A DNA stretch of 64,000 bases from a virus (IMGVR_UViG_3300042511_000631:32519-96518); one strand, 5' to 3'. Positions 37,420 to 64,000 are shown, counted from the first letter of the stretch. A program made the numbers and translations. Notes: generated by a model from the letters alone, not told the origin.

Positions 37420-37878
37420 ATGGCCGTGTTAATGTTTTTAGATGGTGTAATGCGCAATCAACAAGGTTCGCCAATTCCTAATGGTGTGTTGTTATATCAC
37501 ATCTTAAAAGAAAAAAATAAAATATTATTACTTGTTGAAGACAAAGACAAAGCAGACACGTGGCTGCGCCAACACAAAATAAATAAGCTTGACGATCTAA
37601 TTGATTTTAATATCCCTATGCCAGGTGATGATCCAGAGTTCCGTCAAGTTGAGTACGTGCGCTCGCAAGGCCCAGTTGATTATGTAATTACCTCCGACCC
37701 AGCTTTAATTAAAAAACTGTTAGGGATCGGTGTAACTGTATTAGGGTTTATGAACCCTATTTATATTAGGGAAGAGTTTCGGCCAGATAGCAAAGTCGGT
37801 ATTAAAAAGTGGGCGGATATTGTTGATGAGCTAGCCCGCCAACAAGACGCCTTCCTATCGGATCCCCGCGTAGAGTGA
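37420..37878 (+). CDS. HAD-like protein (degenerate motif I)
   Basis: hhhhLDGV N-terminus; Rossmannoid pattern. Confidence 0.45.
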   Translation: MAVLMFLDGVMRNQQGSPIPNGVLLYHILKEKNKILLLVEDKDKADTWLRQHKINKLDDLIDFNIPMPGDDPEFRQVEYVRSQGPVDYVITSDPALIKKLLGIGVTVLGFMNPIYIREEFRPDSKVGIKKWADIVDELARQQDAFLSDPRVE

Positions 37879-39344
37879 AGATCATTTACCTAGGGGCGGA
37901 AGTCCCAAGTAATCGTGTACTACTAGAATCCACTACAGCTAACCATGTAGGCGTTAGCTTCTGGCGGTTAGTTAAGCGAGGGTTACCAAAGAAGAGTGAC
38001 TACATGCTTGACAACTACTTTGCCAAAGACTGCTATATTTATGTTCACCCCGGCATTCCTAAAAACTTAGTCCTATCGGCCTCCGAGGTTGAAGACTTTG
38101 CGGTTATGTACGAGCACTTTGTAGCTAACAACATTGACCGCCTTACTGTAGTTACCGAGATCAACGGCCCACATATCAATCCCGTATTTGTAGAGTCTCA
38201 GCGCCGTACGGTGTGGCATGAGATCCCGCCAGGCAAGTTTCAACCTGTATGGGGACAGCAAACTGGGCTGCGGGGGTTACAAACCCTTGTGGATAAGTAT
38301 TTAGACGTTGCTATCCCCGGAGATGCTATAGAGTCTGATTCTCAGCTTGCTATGGCTACTAGAGCTCACGCTATCCAGCATGGCACTAGGTTCCACGCCC
38401 TAGGCTGCGCCAAGCCTGACAACCTGCGGCAAGTCAAGGTTGAAACAGCTAGCACCTTGTCATGGATGTCACCTATGCTTCATGGCGAAACTATTATTTG
38501 GGATGGCAGCCGACTGGTACGCTACCCAAAGAAGATGAAAGATCAAGCGCGGTCACGGTACAAGCATGTATATGAAAAAGCCGGACTCGACGCAGATAAG
38601 ATTCTAGAAGATGATGCCCAAGAGGTATGTCGACTAGCAGTATGGTCATATGAACAGCTTGAAGTGAGGATAAATAAGATGATCAATAACCCAGATGACG
38701 AGCTCTTATATGATAATAGCGAGTGGAGTGAAGGGGAGCAAAAGGGGGAAACTACCCCTGCCCATGCTGATAACAGGGGTATCCAGATGCGGAAACTTAT
38801 ACCCCGCGAACCCGAAGAAATGGGCAATTTACCAGTCTTCGGATACGAGGATAAGACCGAGGTTGACAACGATGGAGTCATTAAAGATGTCACCGTTGTT
38901 CACTCCCAAAAGGCTAGTTTACGAGCTTGCGATACCTGCTTTGTAGCTGCTAACTGCCCTGCTTTTAAACCTCAAAGTGTCTGTGCTTTCAAGCTTCCAA
39001 TCGAGGTAAAGACCAAAGATCAGCTCAAGAGTTTGATCAACGCAGTCATTGAAATGCAGGGTCAACGCATTGCTTTTATGCGTTTTGCTGAGGAAATGAA
39101 CGGTGGATACGCAGATCCAAACCTTTCACAAGAGATGGATCGCTTGTTTGAAATGCTAAAAGATACCAAGCAACTAGACGATTCACGTGAGTTTATTCGC
39201 ATGACCGTAGAGCGACAAGGCTCCTCTGGTGTGCTAAGTTCTATCTTCGGGGACAAGGCAAATGTCCTTAAAGAACTTCCCGACGGAGGGCTAAATGAAG
39301 CTCAAACCACCGAGATTATCAGGCAATCTTTAGAGGATAAGTAG
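37875..39344 (+). CDS. Putative TGT-like barrel fused to a Cys-cluster domain
   Basis: FHALG..SW..G pattern; CDTC..C..C. Confidence 0.35.
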   Translation: MKIIYLGAEVPSNRVLLESTTANHVGVSFWRLVKRGLPKKSDYMLDNYFAKDCYIYVHPGIPKNLVLSASEVEDFAVMYEHFVANNIDRLTVVTEINGPHINPVFVESQRRTVWHEIPPGKFQPVWGQQTGLRGLQTLVDKYLDVAIPGDAIESDSQLAMATRAHAIQHGTRFHALGCAKPDNLRQVKVETASTLSWMSPMLHGETIIWDGSRLVRYPKKMKDQARSRYKHVYEKAGLDADKILEDDAQEVCRLAVWSYEQLEVRINKMINNPDDELLYDNSEWSEGEQKGETTPAHADNRGIQMRKLIPREPEEMGNLPVFGYEDKTEVDNDGVIKDVTVVHSQKASLRACDTCFVAANCPAFKPQSVCAFKLPIEVKTKDQLKSLINAVIEMQGQRIAFMRFAEEMNGGYADPNLSQEMDRLFEMLKDTKQLDDSREFIRMTVERQGSSGVLSSIFGDKANVLKELPDGGLNEAQTTEIIRQSLEDK

Positions 39345-42592: not shown

Positions 42593-42931
42593 TTATTTCA
42601 CTAACACTTGAATATCGCGGTATTTGACATCAAAGTATAGATCTCTCTCTACTCCCTCTTCATCTTTGTAGAATACTTCTATTCCGAGGGCATTTATTCT
42701 TACGCCGGTTACTTTATAACTTGCGTCGCCAAGGTGGTATTTTTCATGGGTATTGACACTTACGATGAAAGCTTCATGACTTTCATATAAATTACCGTCA
42801 ATCTCTAAAATACTACTATCGTTGTACGGGCGGCCTTCTGGTAATGGCATTGAGTCATCCCAAAGGTCGATTATGTTTGGATCGGTTTCGGTCTTTATCA
42901 TTTGTTTCCTTAGTTTGTGTTGGTTTGGCAT
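42593..42931 (-). CDS. Hypothetical protein (start may be 42902)
   Basis: AAGGA RBS before the internal ATG. Confidence 0.55.
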   Translation of the reverse strand: MPNQHKLRKQMIKTETDPNIIDLWDDSMPLPEGRPYNDSSILEIDGNLYESHEAFIVSVNTHEKYHLGDASYKVTGVRINALGIEVFYKDEEGVERDLYFDVKYRDIQVLVK

Positions 42932-46126: not shown

Positions 46127-46143
46127 CGTTGATCTCTCTCTTT

Positions 46144-46187
46144 ACCCTATCCCGAAGGGATAAGGGGAGGGTGGGTCAACACAAACA
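46144..46187 (+). repeat. Hairpin/G4 repeat copy 1
   Basis: ACCCTATCCCGAAGGGATAAGGGGAGGGTGGGTCAACACAAACA. Confidence 0.95.
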
Positions 46188-46251
46188 AGTTGCCGAGCTG
46201 CGCCGGTCGCCCGGGCAGCTCAGCAAGCTGGCAGTGTTAGCTAATTCATCG

Positions 46252-46350
46252 TTAATCATCCTCTCTACAGATGTCGCACAGTCTTTCCGCGCAACATATT
46301 GACTCGACCGAGCAGCGTTCGCACCACTCTTTATCTAGATCACAGCTCAT
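46252..46350 (-). CDS. 32-aa Cys-rich microprotein
   Basis: MSCDLDKEWCERCSVESICCAERLCDIC; ATGA-coupled. Confidence 0.45.
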   Translation of the reverse strand: MSCDLDKEWCERCSVESICCAERLCDICREDD

Positions 46351-46673
46351 TTACACTCCAAGCTGTATAAAAGGTTCTCCGCGTACTCATACATCGGCGT
46401 GCCCTCAGCTACCTCTGTCCGGGCCCCGTCAAACCAGTCATGAAAGACATACTCCGCGGAAACGATCTCTCCGAACTTGTGCTTTATCTCTAAATAGTCA
46501 CTAGGGCCACCGTAGCTAAAACACACACGGGTGAACTCATATTGATCAATTGCGAGCGCGGGGTCGTCAAAATACTCATCTGGATCAGGGTGATCCATAA
46601 GCAGTCGTAGCTGCGCATTCCTCTGCGCTAGCTCAGCTTGAATGCGATCTTTACAAGGCTCATTACTACTCAT
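46347..46673 (-). CDS. Hypothetical protein
   Basis: Probable start MSSNEPC; SYGGPSD..DWFDGA motifs. Confidence 0.6.
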   Translation of the reverse strand: MSSNEPCKDRIQAELAQRNAQLRLLMDHPDPDEYFDDPALAIDQYEFTRVCFSYGGPSDYLEIKHKFGEIVSAEYVFHDWFDGARTEVAEGTPMYEYAENLLYSLECK

Positions 46674-46818
46674 TTTCACACCCGCACGCGCAGCTAACCG
46701 CTTCGGTAGCTGCTTCGAGCCCTTTCTCTTTAATATATTCGGTGGCGTAGAAAGAGGCCTCCCCAGCGGAGAGGCCAACCTCCATTCCCCAATCTTTAAG
46801 ACGATCAAACGTGCTCAT
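46666..46818 (-). CDS. 50-aa protein (not in ORF track)
   Basis: Coupled ORF MSTFDRLKDW. Confidence 0.45.
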   Translation of the reverse strand: MSTFDRLKDWGMEVGLSAGEASFYATEYIKEKGLEAATEAVSCACGCENE

Positions 46819-46994
46819 AGCTTCCCCTCAATATTCGTCGAATAGCACTCTTTACAAGTGCCTTCCTCAACCTCATGGAACTCTTTGTAAAAGACATCCT
46901 CAAGCTCACCTTTCTCATCGTACTCAGCTTCGTTATAGCTATTCTCACAATAAGTAAAGCGGCGGGTATTACCACAATCTAGACACTTAGGCAT
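46815..46994 (-). CDS. 59-aa acidic zinc-ribbon protein
   Basis: MPKCLDCG..CKEC; GGAGG RBS. Confidence 0.6.
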   Translation of the reverse strand: MPKCLDCGNTRRFTYCENSYNEAEYDEKGELEDVFYKEFHEVEEGTCKECYSTNIEGKL

Positions 46995-47277
46995 TTGTAA
47001 CCTCCAGTTTAGTAGTCCAGTCCGACATATCAGGGTAGTTCAGGCCGAATATAAAGCCACCGCCATTGCCTTCCTCATCTTGCGATATCTCTATCTTGAT
47101 TAGCTTGCCATTAGCAAGGCGCACCGAAAACTGCGGGAAGGAATCCTCACTACACTCAAGGCCAATTTTGCCCTTAAAGCTAATTATCTTTGCGCCCTCT
47201 AATTGGCTATAGTAACGCTTGTAAAACTCAGCAGCTTTAGCTGCGTGGTGATCGTTTAACGCACTCATCTCTCTCAT
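46987..47277 (-). CDS. Hypothetical protein
   Basis: SQDEEGNGGGF motif; first gene of its cassette. Confidence 0.6.
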   Translation of the reverse strand: MREMSALNDHHAAKAAEFYKRYYSQLEGAKIISFKGKIGLECSEDSFPQFSVRLANGKLIKIEISQDEEGNGGGFIFGLNYPDMSDWTTKLEVTNA

Positions 47278-47309
47278 CTCTCTATCAGTTGTGGTATCTC
47301 CACGGTCAT

Positions 47310-47348
47310 AAATTACTCTCTTTCAGCTACTTATCAACCGACACGCCG
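47310..47348 (-). promoter_or_regulatory. Cassette promoter with GACAC box
   Basis: CGGCGTGTCG then TTGATA-16-TAATTT. Confidence 0.55.
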
Positions 47349-47434
47349 CACTTTCGCAGCTATTTTTTTATAACAATATTGTTATCGACTCTCTCGGCGT
47401 GTCTACTTGACATTCCGGCCGACTCTCTCTCCAC

Positions 47435-47478
47435 ACCCTATCCCGAAGGGATAAGGGGAGGGTGGGCCAACACAAACA
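47435..47478 (+). repeat. Hairpin/G4 repeat copy 2
   Basis: ACCCTATCCCGAAGGGATAAGGGGAGGGTGGGCCAACACAAACA. Confidence 0.95.
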
Positions 47479-47506
47479 TTTGGCTTTTGGGTTTAGGCAT
47501 TTCCCT

Positions 47507-47560
47507 AAAATAAAAAGAGAAATGCCCCAGCTGCCGTCTAACAGCCAGGGCATTCTTTTC
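47507..47560 (-). terminator. Intrinsic terminator
   Basis: AATGCCC..GGGCATT stem with an A-rich left flank (U-tract on minus). Confidence 0.6.
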
Positions 47561-47580
47561 TCTGATAGGAGGAAACCTAT

Positions 47581-47862
47581 TTAATCACAACAGCCACAAC
47601 ATTCTACGCAGACCGGTTGATTATCTTTAATATGAGTCCGGCAAGCATACTCACTCATATTCATATCTGGATTCCGGCAGTCCTCACAGATGATCTCCGC
47701 TAATTGCTGCCATGTCATATCTCTTAAGTGCGGGGGTTCATCTTCATCTACATGAGTCCGATAATGGACTATCAGATCACTAGAGGTAGAGAAGTAACCA
47801 AAGCAATACTCACAGACTCTAGTTACCACAGCAACCCTCCCCATTATGGATCTCTTTAACAT
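47581..47862 (-). CDS. C2H2 zinc-finger plus Cys-cluster protein (true start likely ~47830-47844)
   Basis: CEYCFGYFSTSSDLIVHYRTH; CEDC..C..H..CVECCGCC. Confidence 0.65.
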   Translation of the reverse strand: MLKRSIMGRVAVVTRVCEYCFGYFSTSSDLIVHYRTHVDEDEPPHLRDMTWQQLAEIICEDCRNPDMNMSEYACRTHIKDNQPVCVECCGCCD

Positions 47863-47957
47863 CTAACCACCGTAGCACTTCACCGTCATAGACATCGGCG
47901 GTAAAGTTCATAATTGCGTTTAACCATTTTTCATCGATCTCAAGGGTGACTCTGTAG

Positions 47958-48377
47958 TTAGGCACTTGGCACCTCACTATGAGTCGACACGTATGAGTTC
48001 GCGCCCGGAACTACAACACTATTTAACTTGATAATCGCCTTATGAGGGCACGGGCAATCGGGGGTGGGCACATACTCCTCTTTCCAATAAGTAGTGATCT
48101 CCATTAGAGAGTCGCACTCGGTACAAAGATATTGGTGCTTAACCCATGCGCCAAAGTGTGTCTTATTGACCTTAGATACCAAGCCAAGTTCAGCGATCTG
48201 CGGAGAGAGTTCGTCAATCTCTTCATCTAACTCTACACGAATAGATATATAGTCATCATGGTCTTGATTCTGTCTAAGATAGTTCAGATCTACAGCAACG
48301 CCAATAGCCACATCTAGTAGTACCATGGCATCAGGGTCACCCTGTAAATACTTTTCTGCGATCTCGCGGTTGTTCAT
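47958..48377 (-). CDS. Hypothetical protein with zinc ribbon
   Basis: CTEC..CPC. Confidence 0.6.
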   Translation of the reverse strand: MNNREIAEKYLQGDPDAMVLLDVAIGVAVDLNYLRQNQDHDDYISIRVELDEEIDELSPQIAELGLVSKVNKTHFGAWVKHQYLCTECDSLMEITTYWKEEYVPTPDCPCPHKAIIKLNSVVVPGANSYVSTHSEVPSA

Positions 48378-48422
48378 ATTCTCACCTATCAGGATAAGTC
48401 GGCATTGTTACCGACAAAGCAC

Positions 48423-48461
48423 AAGGTAGTGCCTCTCTCAGTTAATTTCAACGACACGCCG
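48423..48461 (-). promoter_or_regulatory. Cassette promoter with GACAC box
   Basis: CGGCGTGTCG then TTGAAA-17-TACCTT. Confidence 0.65.
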
Positions 48462-48523
48462 TAAAATTACTATAACGATATTGTTATAAACTTAACGGCG
48501 TGTCGCCTTGACTCTCTCTCAAT

Positions 48524-48566
48524 ACCCTATCCCGAAGGGATAAGGGGAGGGTGGGCCAACACAAAC
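48524..48566 (+). repeat. Hairpin/G4 repeat copy 3
   Basis: Identical core to copy 2. Confidence 0.95.
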
Positions 48567-48612
48567 TAATAAGCATTGAGGCTTTGGGCAAAATAGTATT
48601 TTGGCATGCCCT

Positions 48613-48651
48613 AAAAAAAAGATCGCCCCCACCGGCAACCGGCAGGGGCGA
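48613..48651 (-). terminator. Intrinsic terminator
   Basis: TCGCCCC/GGGGCGA stem plus A8 (U8 on minus). Confidence 0.75.
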
Positions 48652-48664
48652 GCTTCTATTTAAT

Positions 48665-48823
48665 TTAATCGAAATAACCTTCAGCCCACAGCCCATTTAG
48701 AAAGACTGTCGCCATAGTTAAATTACCATGTAACCAAGGGTCATCAGTATCATTAACAGTAGTTAAAGCAGACTCAATAGCAGTAACCATGTCATCTAGG
48801 TCAGCTTTGGTATATCCCAGCAT
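48665..48823 (-). CDS. 52-aa protein (not in ORF track)
   Basis: MLGYTKADLDDM..LWAEGYFD. Confidence 0.5.
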   Translation of the reverse strand: MLGYTKADLDDMVTAIESALTTVNDTDDPWLHGNLTMATVFLNGLWAEGYFD

Positions 48824-48826
48824 GGC

Positions 48827-49297
48827 TCACCAACTCGACTGGTACTCGAACGACCAGTATTGTCCATATTTTGCGGTGTGTAGGCACTTGTCAACGATAG
48901 CAATCGTATTGCTAAGGCTTTGGTAATACCAGTCATCTCGCTCAGCATTACCAAAGAAAAACCCTTCGGTAGGTTCTAGCACTCCGCCACCTTTACCGCC
49001 AGCAGGTACCAGCAACTCTAACTGGCAAGCCTCTTTAAGTTTGACTAGATCGTCAACGCTTACATAATACGGCTTACAATTATCCTCACCGCCTTGGACA
49101 TTTTCAACGAACCAGTTATGAATTGCGTTAGCCTTGCGCCAATAACCAACATTGAAAGAGATCTCCATTGACGGGGATTGCTCTGATATTTCGACTTGCG
49201 GATATAAAGCTTTTAAGCGATCAAACTCGCTTGTATCGTCTTGGTGCGACCAGCCGCTTATATATTTTTTTGCGTATAAATACATATCTAAACCCAT
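48827..49297 (-). CDS. Conserved phage protein of unknown function
   Basis: MGLDMYL, YWRKANAIHNWFV, GFFFG, YQSSW. Confidence 0.7.
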   Translation of the reverse strand: MGLDMYLYAKKYISGWSHQDDTSEFDRLKALYPQVEISEQSPSMEISFNVGYWRKANAIHNWFVENVQGGEDNCKPYYVSVDDLVKLKEACQLELLVPAGGKGGGVLEPTEGFFFGNAERDDWYYQSLSNTIAIVDKCLHTAKYGQYWSFEYQSSW

Positions 49298-49321
49298 TTA
49301 CTTACTCCTATCTAGTAGTTT

Positions 49322-49351
49322 GGTGAGCAGTTTAATCTCATGCTCAGGAGA
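49322..49351 (-). ncRNA. Small pseudoknot motif, copy 2
   Basis: TCTC-CTGAGCAT-GAGA-TTAAACT-GCTCA. Confidence 0.6.
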
Positions 49352-49360
49352 GATAGGGGA

Positions 49361-49852
49361 TTACGCCAGCGTTTCGGCAGTAATTTTTTGGTTAGCGATC
49401 TCGTTGATGGCTTCAACGATCTTTGAGTGTAGCCCGTCACGCATTTGCTGAACTGATTCGGGTGACCAGCCAGCGCGGATTACGCGTACCACTAGCAAGG
49501 CTAGTGAGTAACTAGGATCTGCCACTAGACACTTTTCTAGTGACGCCATAGCGTCAGCGGTTAGCCCTACTTCATACTGATAAAGGGCTAATACAGCGTT
49601 AAACGGGGTGCGGTGATTCTCCGCGACATTTTCTGCTAGGTAAGCAAGATATTCAAACGCGGTCATAAAGTCTTTTGACTCTACTGTGAAACCGATTAGG
49701 TAATCGCGCAACTGAACTTCATTTGCTACGGCATAACCGATAATGTCTAGTGACAATGGGCTAATGAACTTCTTATCTAAAAAACGCTGATAATTGTTGT
49801 CAATTATCAGTTTTGCCTCTGAAACAGTAGGCAAGGCTTCAATGCTTAACAT
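49361..49852 (-). CDS. DUF4192-like helical-repeat protein
   Basis: LRD..LA..Y..G..A..L..DP.YSLA.L..AG..P. Confidence 0.6.
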   Translation of the reverse strand: MLSIEALPTVSEAKLIIDNNYQRFLDKKFISPLSLDIIGYAVANEVQLRDYLIGFTVESKDFMTAFEYLAYLAENVAENHRTPFNAVLALYQYEVGLTADAMASLEKCLVADPSYSLALLVVRVIRAGWSPESVQQMRDGLHSKIVEAINEIANQKITAETLA

Positions 49853-49900
49853 TGAAATCTCCTATCAAGAGTTACTAGACCGATCTGATCTAGTAAGAGC

Positions 49901-49940
49901 AATTTAATCTCTCGCCCTGTCAATGTAAAGCGACACGCCG
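49901..49940 (-). promoter_or_regulatory. Cassette promoter with GACAC box
   Basis: CGGCGTGTCG then TTTACA-17-TAAATT. Confidence 0.65.
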
Positions 49941-49985
49941 ACCATTTAGCAATTATTTTTTTATTTTTTACGCGCCTCTCTCAAT

Positions 49986-50029
49986 ACCCTATCCCGAAGG
50001 GATAAGGGGAGGGTGGGCCAACACAAACA
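49986..50029 (+). repeat. Hairpin/G4 repeat copy 4
   Basis: Identical core to copy 2. Confidence 0.95.
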
Positions 50030-50082
50030 TATTAGGCATTGGGAAAAGAAGTTTTGGCACCCTATATAAAACGCGGGCACAG

Positions 50083-50110
50083 AAAAGCCCCGGGGGGAAG
50101 GCCGGGGCTG
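50083..50110 (-). terminator. Intrinsic terminator
   Basis: AGCCCCGG/CCGGGGCT stem plus AAAA. Confidence 0.75.
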
Positions 50111-50135
50111 ATCTGTTTATCTGATAGGGATAAAG

Positions 50136-50228
50136 CTAGTTCTCGCAATCGCTACAGGTTGGTTGGCCGTCAACCAGATGATAGCCGGTAATTTCATCTA
50201 CCGGTGAGCCACAACTCCAGCATTTCAT
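50136..50228 (-). CDS. 30-aa C4 zinc-finger microprotein
   Basis: MKCWSCG..CSDCEN; ATGA-coupled to ArdC. Confidence 0.6.
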   Translation of the reverse strand: MKCWSCGSPVDEITGYHLVDGQPTCSDCEN

Positions 50229-51103
50229 GCGCTCACCTCTTCCTTGACCTCGGCGCCTGTAATACACGCAACCGCTTTTTGCGCCTTCGCGCTCGCCTTA
50301 AAGATTAGGCTGGTGTCATTTTTTAGCGCGGTGAGCCAATTCTTTACATAAGCGCCACTATTAGGCAGATCGAATTCGATTCCCGCGGTTGATAACAGCA
50401 TACATGAGCCTAATTCTGCTACCAATTCCTCTTTGGCGTATGACTCGCAACCAAACGCGCTTGGCTTGTCTGCGGAATCCTTCCAGCGATTCACGCGTGA
50501 TTCGTGACCTGTGGAGTGAATCATCTCATGCGCGAAAGTGTAAGCATGCTCGCCTGCGCTGTCGAATTGCTTAAGTGCTGGCAAGGTGATCGAATCTGCG
50601 CTAGGTGAATAAAATGCGCCCGCTTGCTCGCGATAGTAAAGTGTAGGGCGGTTTGCGTATCCTTCCCAGATCGCGTTAATACCTTCTAAAGGTGTTACAG
50701 GCTCGCGGGTGTCTAGGTACTTACTAGGCAATTCGACACCTTCGGTTTGATCTAGGTTGAATACGCTGTCTAACTTATACATGAAGAAAGATTTAGCTGG
50801 ATCGCCCGCTGGCACTTTCTTATCTATGCGCGACATGAACACCACCTTGGTGGCTTTCTCGCCTTTCTTAACGCTTCCGCCCAATTTCTTTGCTTGGTTG
50901 AAAGTAATCCATAGCGGGCGGGAATACTCTAAACCCGCGATAGATAATAGAAGGTTATTTATGCCTTGGTAAGGTTTGCCAGTTTGTAATGATGTCGGCA
51001 TATAGCCATCGGTTGCCCAACCCTTGCGCCATGGCGCATTGCCTTGTTCTAGTTCTGCCATGATCAACCCTGTAACCATGTCCTTGATTTCTGCTTGATT
51101 CAT
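50225..51103 (-). CDS. ardC: ArdC-family antirestriction protein (ssDNA-binding plus zincin domain)
   Basis: PW.K.W, Y.GIN..LL, W.TFNQA..GG.VKKGEK, VFN..Q, AFY.P..D.I..P, HEMIHSTGH, YA.EELVAE. Confidence 0.9.
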   Translation of the reverse strand: MNQAEIKDMVTGLIMAELEQGNAPWRKGWATDGYMPTSLQTGKPYQGINNLLLSIAGLEYSRPLWITFNQAKKLGGSVKKGEKATKVVFMSRIDKKVPAGDPAKSFFMYKLDSVFNLDQTEGVELPSKYLDTREPVTPLEGINAIWEGYANRPTLYYREQAGAFYSPSADSITLPALKQFDSAGEHAYTFAHEMIHSTGHESRVNRWKDSADKPSAFGCESYAKEELVAELGSCMLLSTAGIEFDLPNSGAYVKNWLTALKNDTSLIFKASAKAQKAVACITGAEVKEEVSA

Positions 51104-51145
51104 TTCTATCCCCTATCAAAGGTCACCCGATTAGGTGATGAGATG

Positions 51146-51185
51146 AAGGTATTCTCTATCTCTATGAATTACAAGCCACGCGCCC
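51146..51185 (-). promoter_or_regulatory. Cassette promoter
   Basis: Degenerate box GGGCGCGTGG then TTGTAA-17-TACCTT. Confidence 0.6.
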
Positions 51186-51214
51186 ATTTATTAGGTAACG
51201 ATTAGATAACGATT

Positions 51215-51258
51215 TAATCCACAGCTTTATACACAGGCTGTGGATAACCTGTGGATAA
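51215..51258. promoter_or_regulatory. Cluster of four DnaA boxes
   Basis: TAATCCACA, TTATACACA, TGTGGATAA, TGTGGATAA, spaced 3/3/2 nt. Confidence 0.8.
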
Positions 51259-51266
51259 CTCTCTCC

Positions 51267-51310
51267 ACCCTATCCCGAAGGGATAAGGGGTGGGAGGGCC
51301 AACACAAACA
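51267..51310 (+). repeat. Hairpin/G4 repeat copy 5 (loop bases swapped)
   Basis: ACCCTATCCCGAAGGGATAAGGGGTGGGAGGGCCAACACAAACA. Confidence 0.95.
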
Positions 51311-51341
51311 TTAGGCATCGGGAAATATTATTTGGCGCCCT

Positions 51342-51373
51342 AAAAAAAAGAACCCCCGCTGGGTGCGGGGGCT
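51342..51373 (-). terminator. Intrinsic terminator
   Basis: CCCCCGC/GCGGGGG stem plus A8. Confidence 0.8.
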
Positions 51374-57945: not shown

Positions 57946-60396
57946 ATGTTCGCAGTATTATCTGTACTAACATACGCCGCTTTTTTCCCTTTACTATTCC
58001 CAACACCTGCTAACGCCGAAGGTAGTATTGGCGCGCCTACAAACTTAACAATTGTTGACGGCGGGACTTCTCTTATTCTTTCTTGGCAAGCACCAGACTC
58101 TGGCACAGCTACAGTTCAACCAGAAAGATACGCCATTATGTTTAGCGTTGATGGAGGTGGTTGGGGAATAGCAACTGGAAATGTTGGAGATGCTAACGCT
58201 CTTAATACAACAATATCTATTGACAAGTCATTACTAGATAGCCTTAAACCTGCAGGCACGGTATGGTCATTTCATATTAGATCTGATAACGATACTTTGC
58301 GCATGTATTCCGCAAATTCAAATGTTGTAACTGGGGCTACTGCTGCTCCAGCCCCTGAACCAACTCCTACCCCTACTCCTACTCCGACTCCCACTCCAAC
58401 TCCGACTCCAGAGCCTTCACCATCTCCTTCAGAAACAGTAACGCCCCAACCGAGCCCAACGCCAGAACCAACAGCGACACCAGAACCTTCTTCATCTCCT
58501 ACTCCTTCTCCCGAGGCGACCAGTAATTCTCCTTCGCCTTCCCCGTCCACCACACAGCAGCCCAGCCCAGAGCCATCAGTAACACCCAGCCCAACACCAT
58601 CTCCATCAATTACTCCTTCCGATACTTCAACAGTTCAAGGTACAACAAATGAAGGCGGTTTACTAGAGCTAATTGCTCCTATTGGTAAAATATTTACATC
58701 TGTTATGTTTGCTAGTTATGGTACCCCAAACGGGTATTCGATTGGGCAATGTCACGCACCTAGCAGTATTGAAAAAGTGGCGGAAGTATTTTTAGGTAGA
58801 GCTATCGCTTCAATAATGGCGATCAATGACATATTTGGCGATCCTTGTAGCGGAGTTGGTAAAGCTTTAGCGGTAATACTTCAATACGGAAATGACCCTA
58901 ATCCCGCCCCATCGCCTTCGACTTCTCCAAGTCCAGAGCCATCTCCAACGTTGACTCCCGTAGATACCTCAACTGCAACTGTTTCTCCAACGCCATCACC
59001 TGAACCCTCATCGGAGCCGACGCCAACACCCACCCCAGAGCCAAGCCCAACACAAACATCACCAGTAGTAATACCGATTCCATCGCCTACTCCTCTTCCT
59101 GTCGAGCCAACGCCCACACCAACAGTCCCACCAGCAGTGGGACCAACACCACAACCGCAACCAGAACCAACTCCATCACCTACCCCTTCGCCTGAGCCCG
59201 TGCCTGTTGTAGTTCCAACGCCTTCGCCAGAGCCCGTTGTGCCGCCTGTTCCAGCGCCTCAGCCGTCTCCGGAGCCATCCCCGGAGCCAGTTCCTGTTCC
59301 TCAGCCATTACCTACTCCTTCTCCTGAACCGGAGCCTGCCCCAGAGCCAGAGCCTGCGCCAGAGCTAGAGCCAATTCCTGAACCTGAACTTGCTCCAGGA
59401 CCTTTACCAGAGCCTGAACTTGAGCCGCCGCTAATCCCAGAACCCGAGCCTGTTCCTGGGCCAGAACCTGAACCTTCTCCTGGACCTGCTCCAGAGCCGG
59501 AACCAACTCCCGAAGAGCCACCAATTGCGATCCCAGATCCTGAGGGTTCAATTGGTGAGCCACCTACTGAGCCACCCACAGAAGAGCCATTACCACCCAT
59601 AGAGCCGCAACCACCCGTGGAAGAGCCTTCAGAGCCACCCGTAGAGCCCGAGGAGCCTCCTGTGGTACCTGAGCCACCTGTGGAACCAGAACCAGCACCA
59701 GAGATACCAGAGCCAAAGCCACAAAATCCGATAGAAGAATCACCTAAACCTCCTGTAGTAGAACCTGCTCCAGAGCCTATCACACAGGCTGAGGAAACTA
59801 AGGTTGCCGTAACTGAGGCTTTGTCTGATGGAAAGATCACCGCAGCCGATAGCGTTGCTATTTTGGAGTCTTTAAACTCTGATGGAGAGGTCACCGCGGA
59901 AGAAGTATCTACCCTTTCTGAAGCTCTATCTGCTGATGGAAATTTAACTACTGCTGAAAAAGAATTAGTCGCGGATGCCCTTATTGAATCAGTAGTAGAA
60001 GGAGAAACTCTTACAACAGAGCAGATCCAAGACGCGGGAATTGAGTATAAAGATCTTCCAGCGGAGACACCTGTCGAGGTTAGACAGGATGAAGAAGGAA
60101 ACGAAGTTATAATTACAGCAGACGTAGCTGCGGCTCTAGTTTTACTAGAAAACCCATCAGAATTAATTGGCGCAATATTTAGCGATCCAGGTGAGGCACT
60201 ACAAGCACTTGCAAGTATTGGTGCTGATATGTCTACAGAAGAACGAGAAGAGTCTACTAAAGCAGTTGTTGCAACAGTTATTGCAGCAGGTGCGGCAATT
60301 AATGCCGTAGGTGCCGCTACAGCGGGTGGCTCCACTGGAGGAAGTACCGGAGGCGGAGGCGCCTCTGGACAATCAGGATATAGGAGAAAGCCTTGA
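57946..60396 (+). CDS. Secreted/membrane-anchored surface protein: FN3, SUEL-type lectin, PT/PE stalks
   Basis: Signal peptide (..PANA-E); APTNL..LSW.AP; FASYGTP..C..FGDPC.G..K.L; C-terminal hydrophobic anchor. Confidence 0.75.
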   Translation: MFAVLSVLTYAAFFPLLFPTPANAEGSIGAPTNLTIVDGGTSLILSWQAPDSGTATVQPERYAIMFSVDGGGWGIATGNVGDANALNTTISIDKSLLDSLKPAGTVWSFHIRSDNDTLRMYSANSNVVTGATAAPAPEPTPTPTPTPTPTPTPTPEPSPSPSETVTPQPSPTPEPTATPEPSSSPTPSPEATSNSPSPSPSTTQQPSPEPSVTPSPTPSPSITPSDTSTVQGTTNEGGLLELIAPIGKIFTSVMFASYGTPNGYSIGQCHAPSSIEKVAEVFLGRAIASIMAINDIFGDPCSGVGKALAVILQYGNDPNPAPSPSTSPSPEPSPTLTPVDTSTATVSPTPSPEPSSEPTPTPTPEPSPTQTSPVVIPIPSPTPLPVEPTPTPTVPPAVGPTPQPQPEPTPSPTPSPEPVPVVVPTPSPEPVVPPVPAPQPSPEPSPEPVPVPQPLPTPSPEPEPAPEPEPAPELEPIPEPELAPGPLPEPELEPPLIPEPEPVPGPEPEPSPGPAPEPEPTPEEPPIAIPDPEGSIGEPPTEPPTEEPLPPIEPQPPVEEPSEPPVEPEEPPVVPEPPVEPEPAPEIPEPKPQNPIEESPKPPVVEPAPEPITQAEETKVAVTEALSDGKITAADSVAILESLNSDGEVTAEEVSTLSEALSADGNLTTAEKELVADALIESVVEGETLTTEQIQDAGIEYKDLPAETPVEVRQDEEGNEVIITADVAAALVLLENPSELIGAIFSDPGEALQALASIGADMSTEEREESTKAVVATVIAAGAAINAVGAATAGGSTGGSTGGGGASGQSGYRRKP

Positions 60397-62949: not shown

Positions 62950-64000
62950 TGCCAAGTATTGGAATTGTAGCTTCGTCTAGCCGCGAACCAGCTGACACGC
63001 CCGTAATTGGAACCGCAAGCAATGTTCCTTCTGGCCGTGGGTTTAACAACGGCCGCGCTGATGTAACGTTTACAGCTTCTACTTCTGATGGCGGATTACC
63101 CATCACTTCTTACCTTGCTACATCTAACCCTGGCGGTTACACAGGATCAAGTGCAACATCTCCAATCTCAGTAACAGGTCTTCAATCTAACACCGCATAC
63201 ACTTTTAACGTAGCTGCGGTAAACGGTGCGGGAAACTCCGTCGCATCCGCATTTACAAGCGCAATAACTGCTACAACTGTTCCTCAAGCTCCAACCATTG
63301 GCACCGCAACTTCTGGAAACACCACCGCTACTGTGACTTATACAGCAAATGCTACTGGCGGGTCTACTATTACTGGCTTTACCGCAACATCTTCTCCTGG
63401 TGGTTTAACAGGCACAGGTGCCTCACCTATTAGTTTTTCTGGCCTTAGCAATGGTACTGCGTACACATTTACCGTTACCGCAACTAACGCTAACGGCACT
63501 TCAGCTGCGAGCGCAGCTTCTAACTCTGTTACGCCTTCTGTCCCAGCTCCACCTCCGCCACCTCCACCTCCACCTCCGCCACCAGCAGTTCAACCGGTTC
63601 TTACCAGCTTTACATTTACGTCTACAACGTCTGCAGGCTCAGTCTTTGCTAATGGTGGACAACTTTCGTGGACTGGTAGCAACCTTGATATGTGGCGCTT
63701 TATCGGCGACTCCAGCACTTATCCGTCCCCATACAACTATGGAACATTTACCTCTGGTTGGCCTGGCAACTTAGTAAACATGCAACTCGGTGTTAATTAC
63801 AGCATGCAAATGGAATTTCGCTCCAACAGTGGTGGATCCGTATTTTCGCAAGTAATCAATAATATTCCAGCTGCTCCACCGCCTCCTCCAACTCCTCCAC
63901 CGCCAACTCCTCCACCGCCAACTCCTCCACCGCCAACTCCTCCACCGCCAACTCCTCCACCGCCAACTCCTCCACCGCCAACTCCTCCACCGCCAACTCC
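62949..64000 (+). CDS. FN3-repeat fibre/decoration protein with Pro stalk (3'-truncated, not in ORF track)
   Basis: P.IGTA..DGG.PITSY..SPI.V.GL...TAYTF.V.A.N occurs twice; PPPPT repeats. Confidence 0.75.
   Translation, partial: MPSIGIVASSSREPADTPVIGTASNVPSGRGFNNGRADVTFTASTSDGGLPITSYLATSNPGGYTGSSATSPISVTGLQSNTAYTFNVAAVNGAGNSVASAFTSAITATTVPQAPTIGTATSGNTTATVTYTANATGGSTITGFTATSSPGGLTGTGASPISFSGLSNGTAYTFTVTATNANGTSAASAASNSVTPSVPAPPPPPPPPPPPPAVQPVLTSFTFTSTTSAGSVFANGGQLSWTGSNLDMWRFIGDSSTYPSPYNYGTFTSGWPGNLVNMQLGVNYSMQMEFRSNSGGSVFSQVINNIPAAPPPPPTPPPPTPPPPTPPPPTPPPPTPPPPTPPPPTPPPPT
63888..64000 (+). repeat. Perfect 15-bp tandem repeat (CCAACTCCTCCACCG)n, at least 7.5 copies
   Basis: Read directly; runs off the window end. 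Confidence 0.9.

Follow-up and report, generated by a model that had tools for sequence, protein, structure and literature searches.

What maintains a short, G-rich, hairpin-bearing sequence at the borders between the small early-gene cassettes of a phage? The question is raised by a window of 64,000 nucleotides, the whole stretch analyzed here (bases 32519-96518 of a phage record of 96,518 bp in IMG/VR; positions refer to the window unless stated otherwise), in which an element of about 44 nt starts at 46144, 47435, 48524, 49986 and 51267, at spacings of 1291, 1089, 1462 and 1281 nt. The first-pass annotation of this DNA had interpreted the five copies as a switch between a hairpin and a G-quadruplex (G4). 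Our comparison with related phages supports part of that interpretation. The copies belong to a cassette-border element of uncultured freshwater phages that is real, under selection, structured and specific to phages; it is undescribed in Rfam and, with more than 130 distinct copies, defines a new structured nucleic-acid motif. As judged from the sequences of its relatives, however, a four-tract G-quadruplex is not what this family conserves, and it is not required.

The element family and its conserved core

Within the window, a repeat finder returned the element as one five-copy family (46134, 47425, 48514, 49976 and 51257; 77-100% identity over 60 nt), and the 23-mer CCCTATCCCGAAGGGATAAGGGG occurs exactly five times in the 96,518-bp genome, always on the + strand, with no occurrence of its reversed control. 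Copy 1 (46134-46186, +) runs from a CT-run through ACCC-TA, the hairpin TCCC-GAA-GGGA and three G-tracts to the 10-mer CAACACAAAC at 46177-46186. The other copies, all on the same strand, occupy 47425-47477 (copy 2, 10-mer at 47468-47477), 48514-48566 (copy 3, 48557-48566), 49976-50028 (copy 4, 50019-50028) and 51259-51309 (copy 5, 51300-51309). Exact-pattern scans of IMG/VR recovered 11, 49 and 71 stretches carrying the core; without duplicates, the two larger sets contain 144 distinct instances, of which 134 were left once chance matches had been removed. Their consensus on the G-rich strand (G strand) reads GGG-N-GGG-N-GG(G)-Y-CAACACAAAC, in which Y is one pyrimidine, with a CT-run and a (Y)TCCC block upstream. 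The two single-base spacers are never G in the 134 copies (N1: T 72, A 55, C 7; N2: T 93, A 22, C 19). Two builds are found: in type B, to which the window belongs, the G-tracts directly follow a variable loop or hairpin, and in type A they form the loop of a second hairpin, the 3' arm of which reaches into the first C of the 10-mer. About one third of the copies carry a third module, in which an AU hairpin is likewise optional. Rfam returned no covariance match on the element at E values up to 10 in the window and up to 5 in four related loci, with 6C, ribozymes and hepatitis delta virus-like families included.

A covariance model, R1, built from 12 type A seeds, gave 162 matches and recovered all five window copies at 36-43 bits (copy 1 at 46128-46189 with 37.8 bits; copies 2-5 with 41.3, 35.9, 38.8 and 42.7 bits). 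In about 50 relatives, the G-tracts lie in the loop of stem 2, which has 4-7 bp and more than 15 different stem sequences, all Watson-Crick paired. On the R1 alignment, 92.5% of stem 2 is paired versus 73.5% in shuffles, none of 500 shuffles reaching as high a value, and four of the five pairs show changes on both sides. Hairpin 1, which precedes the G-tracts, is built from many alternative stems (among them TATCCC/GGGATA, CTTAC/GTAAG, ATTCCCC/GGGGAAT and CCCT/AGGG), with GAA or GTA as its commonest loops on the G strand, and all length changes in the family are self-complementary insertions. Because the insertions are always self-complementary and the stems covary, the element must function as a folded single strand. 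The first-pass annotation was right to see a selected, structure-forming element at cassette borders and a G-N-A triloop, which is indeed common on the G strand; the hairpin it described is nevertheless missing in many relatives, which keep only a 3-bp CCC/GGG closure around a loop of 3-8 nt. Wobble pairs in hairpin 1 (14 A.C versus 11 G.T) are uninformative. Pairing of the G loop with the 5' pyrimidine run in a pseudoknot was also considered and rejected, the real spacer bases ranking slightly better than the alternatives (mean rank 3.35 versus 4 expected).

What, then, remains of the G-quadruplex? The five copies and the G4-type motif within each are present where the first-pass annotation had placed them, and these copies account for five of the seven G4-type motifs in the whole genome. 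In the window, the TATCCC/GGGATA hairpin (6 bp, GAA loop) is predicted to fold at -6 to -10 kcal/mol as single-stranded DNA. It takes up the whole of G-tract 1 and some of tract 2, and hairpin and G4 would therefore be mutually exclusive in all five copies, as claimed. Selection for G4 folding is a different matter. A four-tract motif with loops of at most 7 nt exists in 37 of the 134 copies (28%), or in 51 when loops of up to 12 nt are allowed, and 76 of the 134 have three tracts only; homologous copies do not generally keep all four tracts. In the window, the fourth tract is supplied by the 3' arm of hairpin 1, in place of which other sub-families have unrelated arms such as GTAAG or AGAG. 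Copy 5, in which the two one-base spacers are swapped (A/T to T/A), had been taken as a sign of G4 selection. The swap is real and lies within the ordinary variation of the family, where both spacers can be T, A or C; it also allows the upstream CCACCC to pair with GGGTGG and form a longer hairpin. The result also calls for caution: what looks like a textbook G4 motif in a single genome can be a side effect of a neighboring hairpin arm.

The proposed hairpin/G4 switch on the G strand, which would trigger recombination, block polymerases on the template strand or serve as an injection signal, is very unlikely in our estimation. In its favor, all five window copies have the canonical four-tract motif overlapping the GAA-loop hairpin, and G-tracts 2-4 with their single-base, non-G spacers are strongly conserved in the family. 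Against it, besides the minority status of the four-tract copies, the roughly 50 relatives with their tracts in a hairpin loop have the last G paired in the stem. A further objection would come from a Tgt/DpdA-like gene of the phage: if its product puts 7-deazaguanine into the DNA, tetrads would be blocked. This gene (37875-39344, +) encodes a 489-aa protein that matches phrog_887, queuine tRNA-ribosyltransferase (E 1.6e-50), with no Pfam match, and from this match it may be a DpdA-like enzyme that puts 7-deazaguanine into DNA; no Pfam matches to preQ0 pathway genes were found near it.

Outside the five elements, the 10-mer is itself over-represented. It occurs nine times on the + strand and once on the - strand of the genome, versus means of 0.33 and 0.15 for words of the same composition. 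A lone copy at 42913-42922 (-) lies in the leader of the minus-strand gene at 42593-42931, just upstream of its ribosome-binding site. The 10-mer also recurs in mRNA sense at two conserved gaps of the late region: after the major head gene, where it follows a GC hairpin, and just before a terminator shared with whiB. The former site lies outside the window, at genome position 13272, and both it and its counterpart in another genome have a conserved arrangement in which a GC-rich hairpin of altered sequence precedes the 10-mer and some 25 nt of leader. At some equivalent borders in related phages, L068 (6671-6752, 7981-8070 and 10870-11020) and L069 among them, palindromic units of 80-150 nt stand in place of the G-tract element; they are bounded by GTTTGTGTTG and CAACACAAAC, with the 10-mer flanking them in both orientations.

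Cassette borders, strand orientation and exchange

All genes between 41.6 and 52.3 kb lie on the minus strand, and the element copies had been described as each lying between the terminator of one cassette and the promoter of the next. For copies 2-5 this holds: strong intrinsic terminators of the upstream cassettes (47555-47520, 48651-48623, 50109-50086 and 51374-51350, all -) lie just to their right, and sigma-A-type promoter-like sites of the next cassettes (47337-47310, 48451-48423, 49929-49901 and 51174-51146, all -) lie 47-88 nt to the left of element copies, each preceded by a GCGTGTCG-type box. The site at 47310-47337, for example, combines the GCGTGTCG box with TTGATA-16-TAATTT. Copy 1 instead directly abuts a hairpin at about 46190-46226. 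In a sigma-70 scan, promoter-like sites are no commoner than in shuffles. The element's own hairpins have no U-tract, the intrinsic terminator adjoining copies 2-5 being separate; in gene sense, the 10-mer reads GUUUGUGUUG and is often the direct continuation of the terminator's U-tract. The third module follows copy 2 at 47478-47518 (+; GGC-T-GGG ... GGCA ... CCC) and has counterparts after copies 3-5 at about 48567-48625, 50029-50070 and 51310-51345.

The 44-nt core has no consistently spaced -35/-10 pair on either strand, and the suggestion that TACCCT or CACCCT serves as the -10 of a G-rich plus-strand small RNA (sRNA) found no support on the + strand. When promoters of the sigma-A, sigma-32, sigma-54, extracytoplasmic function (ECF), Bacteroidetes, T7-like and CRP class II types and a WhiB box were sought by eye on both strands, none was consistently spaced. 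A reading of the element as a small open reading frame (ORF) was rejected as well, its spacer lengths not being multiples of three.

Orientation is strongly biased. In 62 of the 75 loci scorable on both sides (24 type A, 38 type B), both flanking genes lie on the C strand, and reversed orientation is confined to the sub-family with the ATTCCCC-GTA-GGGGAAT hairpin. The copies, five to nine per phage, cluster within 5-8 kb. In five of five complete genomes, this cassette block is inverted relative to the other ~85 kb of genes, so most of the genome has the G strand as its sense strand. GC skew tracks gene orientation only.

The block is also mosaic. In a blastn comparison of 41-53 kb with all fetched loci, the elements form islands of 80-90% identity in more than 25 loci (extending beyond copies 2-5 to 47545, 48633, 50091 and 51365, over the third module), and the genes between them are unmatched or 67-72% identical to a few genomes. 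Such identity amid differing flanking genes makes the element also a homology patch for cassette exchange. Relative to the closest genome the block is collinear, with one to two cassettes between elements replaced; of the exact breakpoints, those on one side fall within the gap, and those on the opposite side interrupt a gene. The phage genome has no match to tyrosine or serine recombinases (PF00589, PF00239; controls working), so any exchange would go via homology. Of the shuffling hotspot once proposed here, what stands is that the element is the best-conserved DNA of a mosaic region and usable as a recombination point; a dedicated tyrosine or serine recombinase is not encoded.

The gaps hold further words beside the element. 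A DnaA-box-like cluster with two perfect copies of TGTGGATAA abuts copy 5 (51215-51258), and GTTATCCACA abuts the CT-run of the element in several related phages (L025, L028, L033, L043 and L050). AT-rich palindromes such as TTATAACAATATTGTTATAA at 47300-47420 and 48400-48510 have CGACACGCC/GGCGTGTCG boxes, which contain the WhiA-type word GACAC, as inverted pairs on their two sides, and the box closest to the gene directly adjoins the -35 of each cassette promoter. TGATAGG(R)G is found at the ribosome-binding sites of the cassette genes (47280, 48385, 49860 and 51110) and its complement just before terminators (47560-47580 and 50120-50140); the hairpin arm GGGATAGGG of the element (minus strand) is similar to this word, as is the start-associated sequence (SAS) motif of cluster K mycobacteriophages. 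In relatives (L010 at about 5480, L072 and L069), a perfect actinobacterial LexA-box-like TCGAACACGTGTTCGA, a parS-like GTTTCACGTGAAAC and CRP-like TGTGA-N6-TCACA words lie beside the elements. Products of the cassette genes (50225-51103 and 49361-49852, both -) include a DUF4192 protein and an ArdC-like anti-restriction protein that has a zincin metallopeptidase domain; most of the other cassette genes belong to no family.

Candidate functions of the element

The explanation we consider best, although we would put it somewhat short of an even chance, is a border module resembling the promoter-early stem-loop (PeSL) cassettes of T4-type phages, in which a factor specific to the phage would recognize the exposed G-tracts and the 10-mer and control how polymerases move from one cassette into the next, with shuffling as a by-product. 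In this model, an element would mark each early-gene cassette border, beside the terminator of the upstream cassette and ahead of the regulator sites and promoter of the next one. Read along the G strand, a CT-run and one or two CCC blocks would lead into a variable hairpin (not always present, its loop often a G-N-A triloop), then the three G-tracts and the invariant CAACACAAAC; the tracts, separated by single non-G spacers, would be either free or held in the loop of the second variable hairpin. The hairpins would serve to present the conserved G-tracts and 10-mer as unpaired sequence, and a phage-specific factor would read what is displayed. Control of polymerases at the border might then operate by insulation, by back-up termination or by its relief, leaving each cassette to answer to its own promoter. 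Exchange of cassettes would be a side effect of the element as a homology patch, as with PeSL in T4-type phages; the collinear block with replaced cassettes seen against the closest genome follows this PeSL pattern. A more specific version, in which a dedicated phage system recognizes the element by reading the folded single strand (hairpin-displayed GGGNGGG plus CAACACAAAC) to impose polar polymerase traffic across the inverted early block, seems possible and rather doubtful; the system could be a protein- or RNA-based antitermination or termination device, or hairpin-dependent initiation of a type new to actinobacterial phages.

Several observations weigh against the border-module model. Neither a binding factor for the element nor a promoter for a G-sense RNA was found. 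In gene sense the terminator lies upstream, so most early transcripts should be without the element. The palindromic units of L068 and L069, with the 10-mer facing both ways, are poorly explained by a strictly polar signal. In the one freshwater metatranscriptome that contained the element, 7% of the words were present, and the element stood only in unstranded contigs of low depth, at the depth expected of a repeat, which allows no conclusion on expression; a 47-nt RNA contig of high depth is merely the shared repeat core. Finally, the evidence on which strand folds is conflicting: the G-N-A triloops and the hairpin-then-10-mer order in late mRNA sense point to the G strand, while the strand that terminator read-through would transcribe and the gene-sense orientation of most loci point to the C strand.

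If the C strand is the working one, the element could act in a gene-sense RNA as a C-rich loop or 5' tract (CC-N-CCC-N-CCC after GUUUGUGUUG) similar to the Gram-positive C-rich sRNAs of the 6C and RsaE/RoxS types; it would pair with G-rich ribosome-binding sites or tag read-through transcripts for Rho or RNase E. RNAalifold lengthens stem 2 on this strand by G-C/G-U pairs, the stem 2 mismatches on the G strand are 11 A.C versus 1 G.T, and three reversed copies have a TTGCCA-16-(T/A)ATGTT promoter-like site that, together with a terminator-like hairpin, would delimit an RNA some 90 nt long. The wobble count is partly confounded, however, by the A belonging to hairpin 1, a strong terminator lies directly upstream, most copies have no promoter, 6C is unmatched in the Rfam scans, and exact conservation goes far beyond the needs of Rho loading; we regard this explanation as unlikely. 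Slightly lower still is our estimate for a single-stranded DNA signal on the G strand, be it a specific site for priming or for starting replication, as plasmid ssi sites are, or a hairpin promoter of N4 type that serves a polymerase not recognized as such. G-N-A triloops closed by a C:G pair are a DNA mini-hairpin type and G-N-A loops are the commonest in the family, the cassette genes have the G strand as their template, the hairpin-plus-10-mer sites all lie on one genome strand, and DnaA boxes abut many copies. On the other side, hairpin 1 is absent from many copies, these are clustered in 5-8 kb and not spread over the genome, and no RNA polymerase was found: PF00940 (T7-type) had no match in the phage, in a search that lacked a working control because the control genomes had none either, and no sequence in PDB matched the large unknown ORFs of the phage.

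A double-stranded binding site of a phage regulator, comprising the 10-mer and perhaps the G-tracts with the hairpins incidental, would suit gaps that are packed with DnaA-, CRP-, LexA-, ParB- and WhiA-like sites, and the 10-mer also exists alone and as inverted pairs. It leaves unexplained the compensatory changes in two stems and the insertions that are always self-complementary, and we consider it improbable. Least credible of all is a selfish miniature mobile element spreading between intergenic gaps, of the miniature inverted-repeat transposable element (MITE), repetitive extragenic palindrome (REP) or IS200/605-like kind. The element is multi-copy, intergenic and hairpin-rich, and some units have 10-bp inverted ends, but its copies occupy equivalent positions in one block, no transposase or recombinase was found, the strongest conservation is in unpaired sequence, and in host-family genomes it is at background.

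Phage, host and known systems

The phage encodes a terminase, portal, major head protein, baseplate J, DNA polymerase A, SNF2 helicase, class II ribonucleotide reductase and two WhiB proteins, and its genome has no match to sigma-70 region 2. Long Pro/Thr-rich coding repeats (PTPPP-like; repeat-finder family D1) lie at 58338-58427 and 63512-64000. A megablast search with the region returned no close phage relatives, and the DNA polymerase is at most 39% identical to those of Streptomyces phages, the closest isolates. A 7.3-kb contig (L064) binned in a Nanopelagicaceae metagenome-assembled genome (MAG) carries eight element copies in one orientation at a spacing of 0.7-1.6 kb; it is probably a phage fragment and hints at the host. 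Given the two WhiB genes and this contig, the host is most likely a freshwater actinobacterium of the acI/Nanopelagicaceae type. Across 26 Nanopelagicaceae genomes the element is otherwise at background, with a single 10-mer match located in a coding region, so the element is the phage's own and phage-specific. Actinobacteria of this type are abundant in freshwater and hard to culture. The early regions of these phages are arrays of small cassettes, including anti-restriction (ArdC-like) genes, each wired to host-regulator-like sites, and a conserved, phage-specific folded signal at the cassette borders offers a way into the insulation, timing and reshuffling of these arrays.

Several known systems share individual features with the element. 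The Neisseria pilE G4 resembles the five window copies in its G3 tracts and 1-nt loops, but the family does not keep four tracts, and no associated sRNA promoter was found. Integron attC sites likewise come one per cassette in the same orientation, fold as single strands and have variable stems with short conserved ends; in contrast, the phage has no integrase or other site-specific recombinase, the R'/R'' cores do not fit and the cassettes have their own promoters. Lambda nut and HK022 put are RNA signals for processive antitermination, put consisting of two hairpins. The G-strand order of a CUCUCUUA-like run, a small hairpin closed by a loop of GAA(A) type, a CA-rich stretch and a terminator recalls boxA-boxB-rut upstream of tR1. 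Unlike these signals, the G strand of the element is antisense to the neighboring genes, no promoter was found for it, the terminator comes first in gene sense, the host rrn leader box CCUUGAGAACUCAACAAC is not reproduced, and there are five to nine copies per phage. A likeness to host rrn leader boxA/boxC was rejected, being limited to a partial CUCAACAAC match in one sub-family.

The early promoters of phage N4 are DNA hairpins with a 5-7 bp stem and a 3-nt loop that are read by the virion RNA polymerase. The window hairpin TATCCC-GAA-GGGATA (+), with its 6-bp stem and GAA loop on the template strand of minus-strand genes, is similar in form, and here too the copies are repeated in the early region, among transcription units that each have their own terminator. 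The element differs in that its hairpin is dispensable in many relatives and its conserved sequence lies outside the hairpin, and no N4-like polymerase gene was found in the phage, in a search that found none in the control genomes either.

By analogy, the closest known system appears to be the PeSL cassettes mentioned above. In T4-type phages, these are repeated modules between small variable early genes that combine stem-loops or terminators with early promoters, have frequent G and C runs in the stem-loop and, as patches of homology, allow modules to be shuffled (Arbiol et al. 2010, PMC2839356). The present element differs in that its conserved core is without a promoter, which lies 47-88 nt further on, and termination falls to another hairpin, which is variable and stands apart; besides two stems that covary, the core contains an unpaired 18-mer that is invariant, and the hosts are actinobacteria. 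With PeSL it shares repetition between small variable early genes, stem-loops near promoters and the properties of a homology patch.

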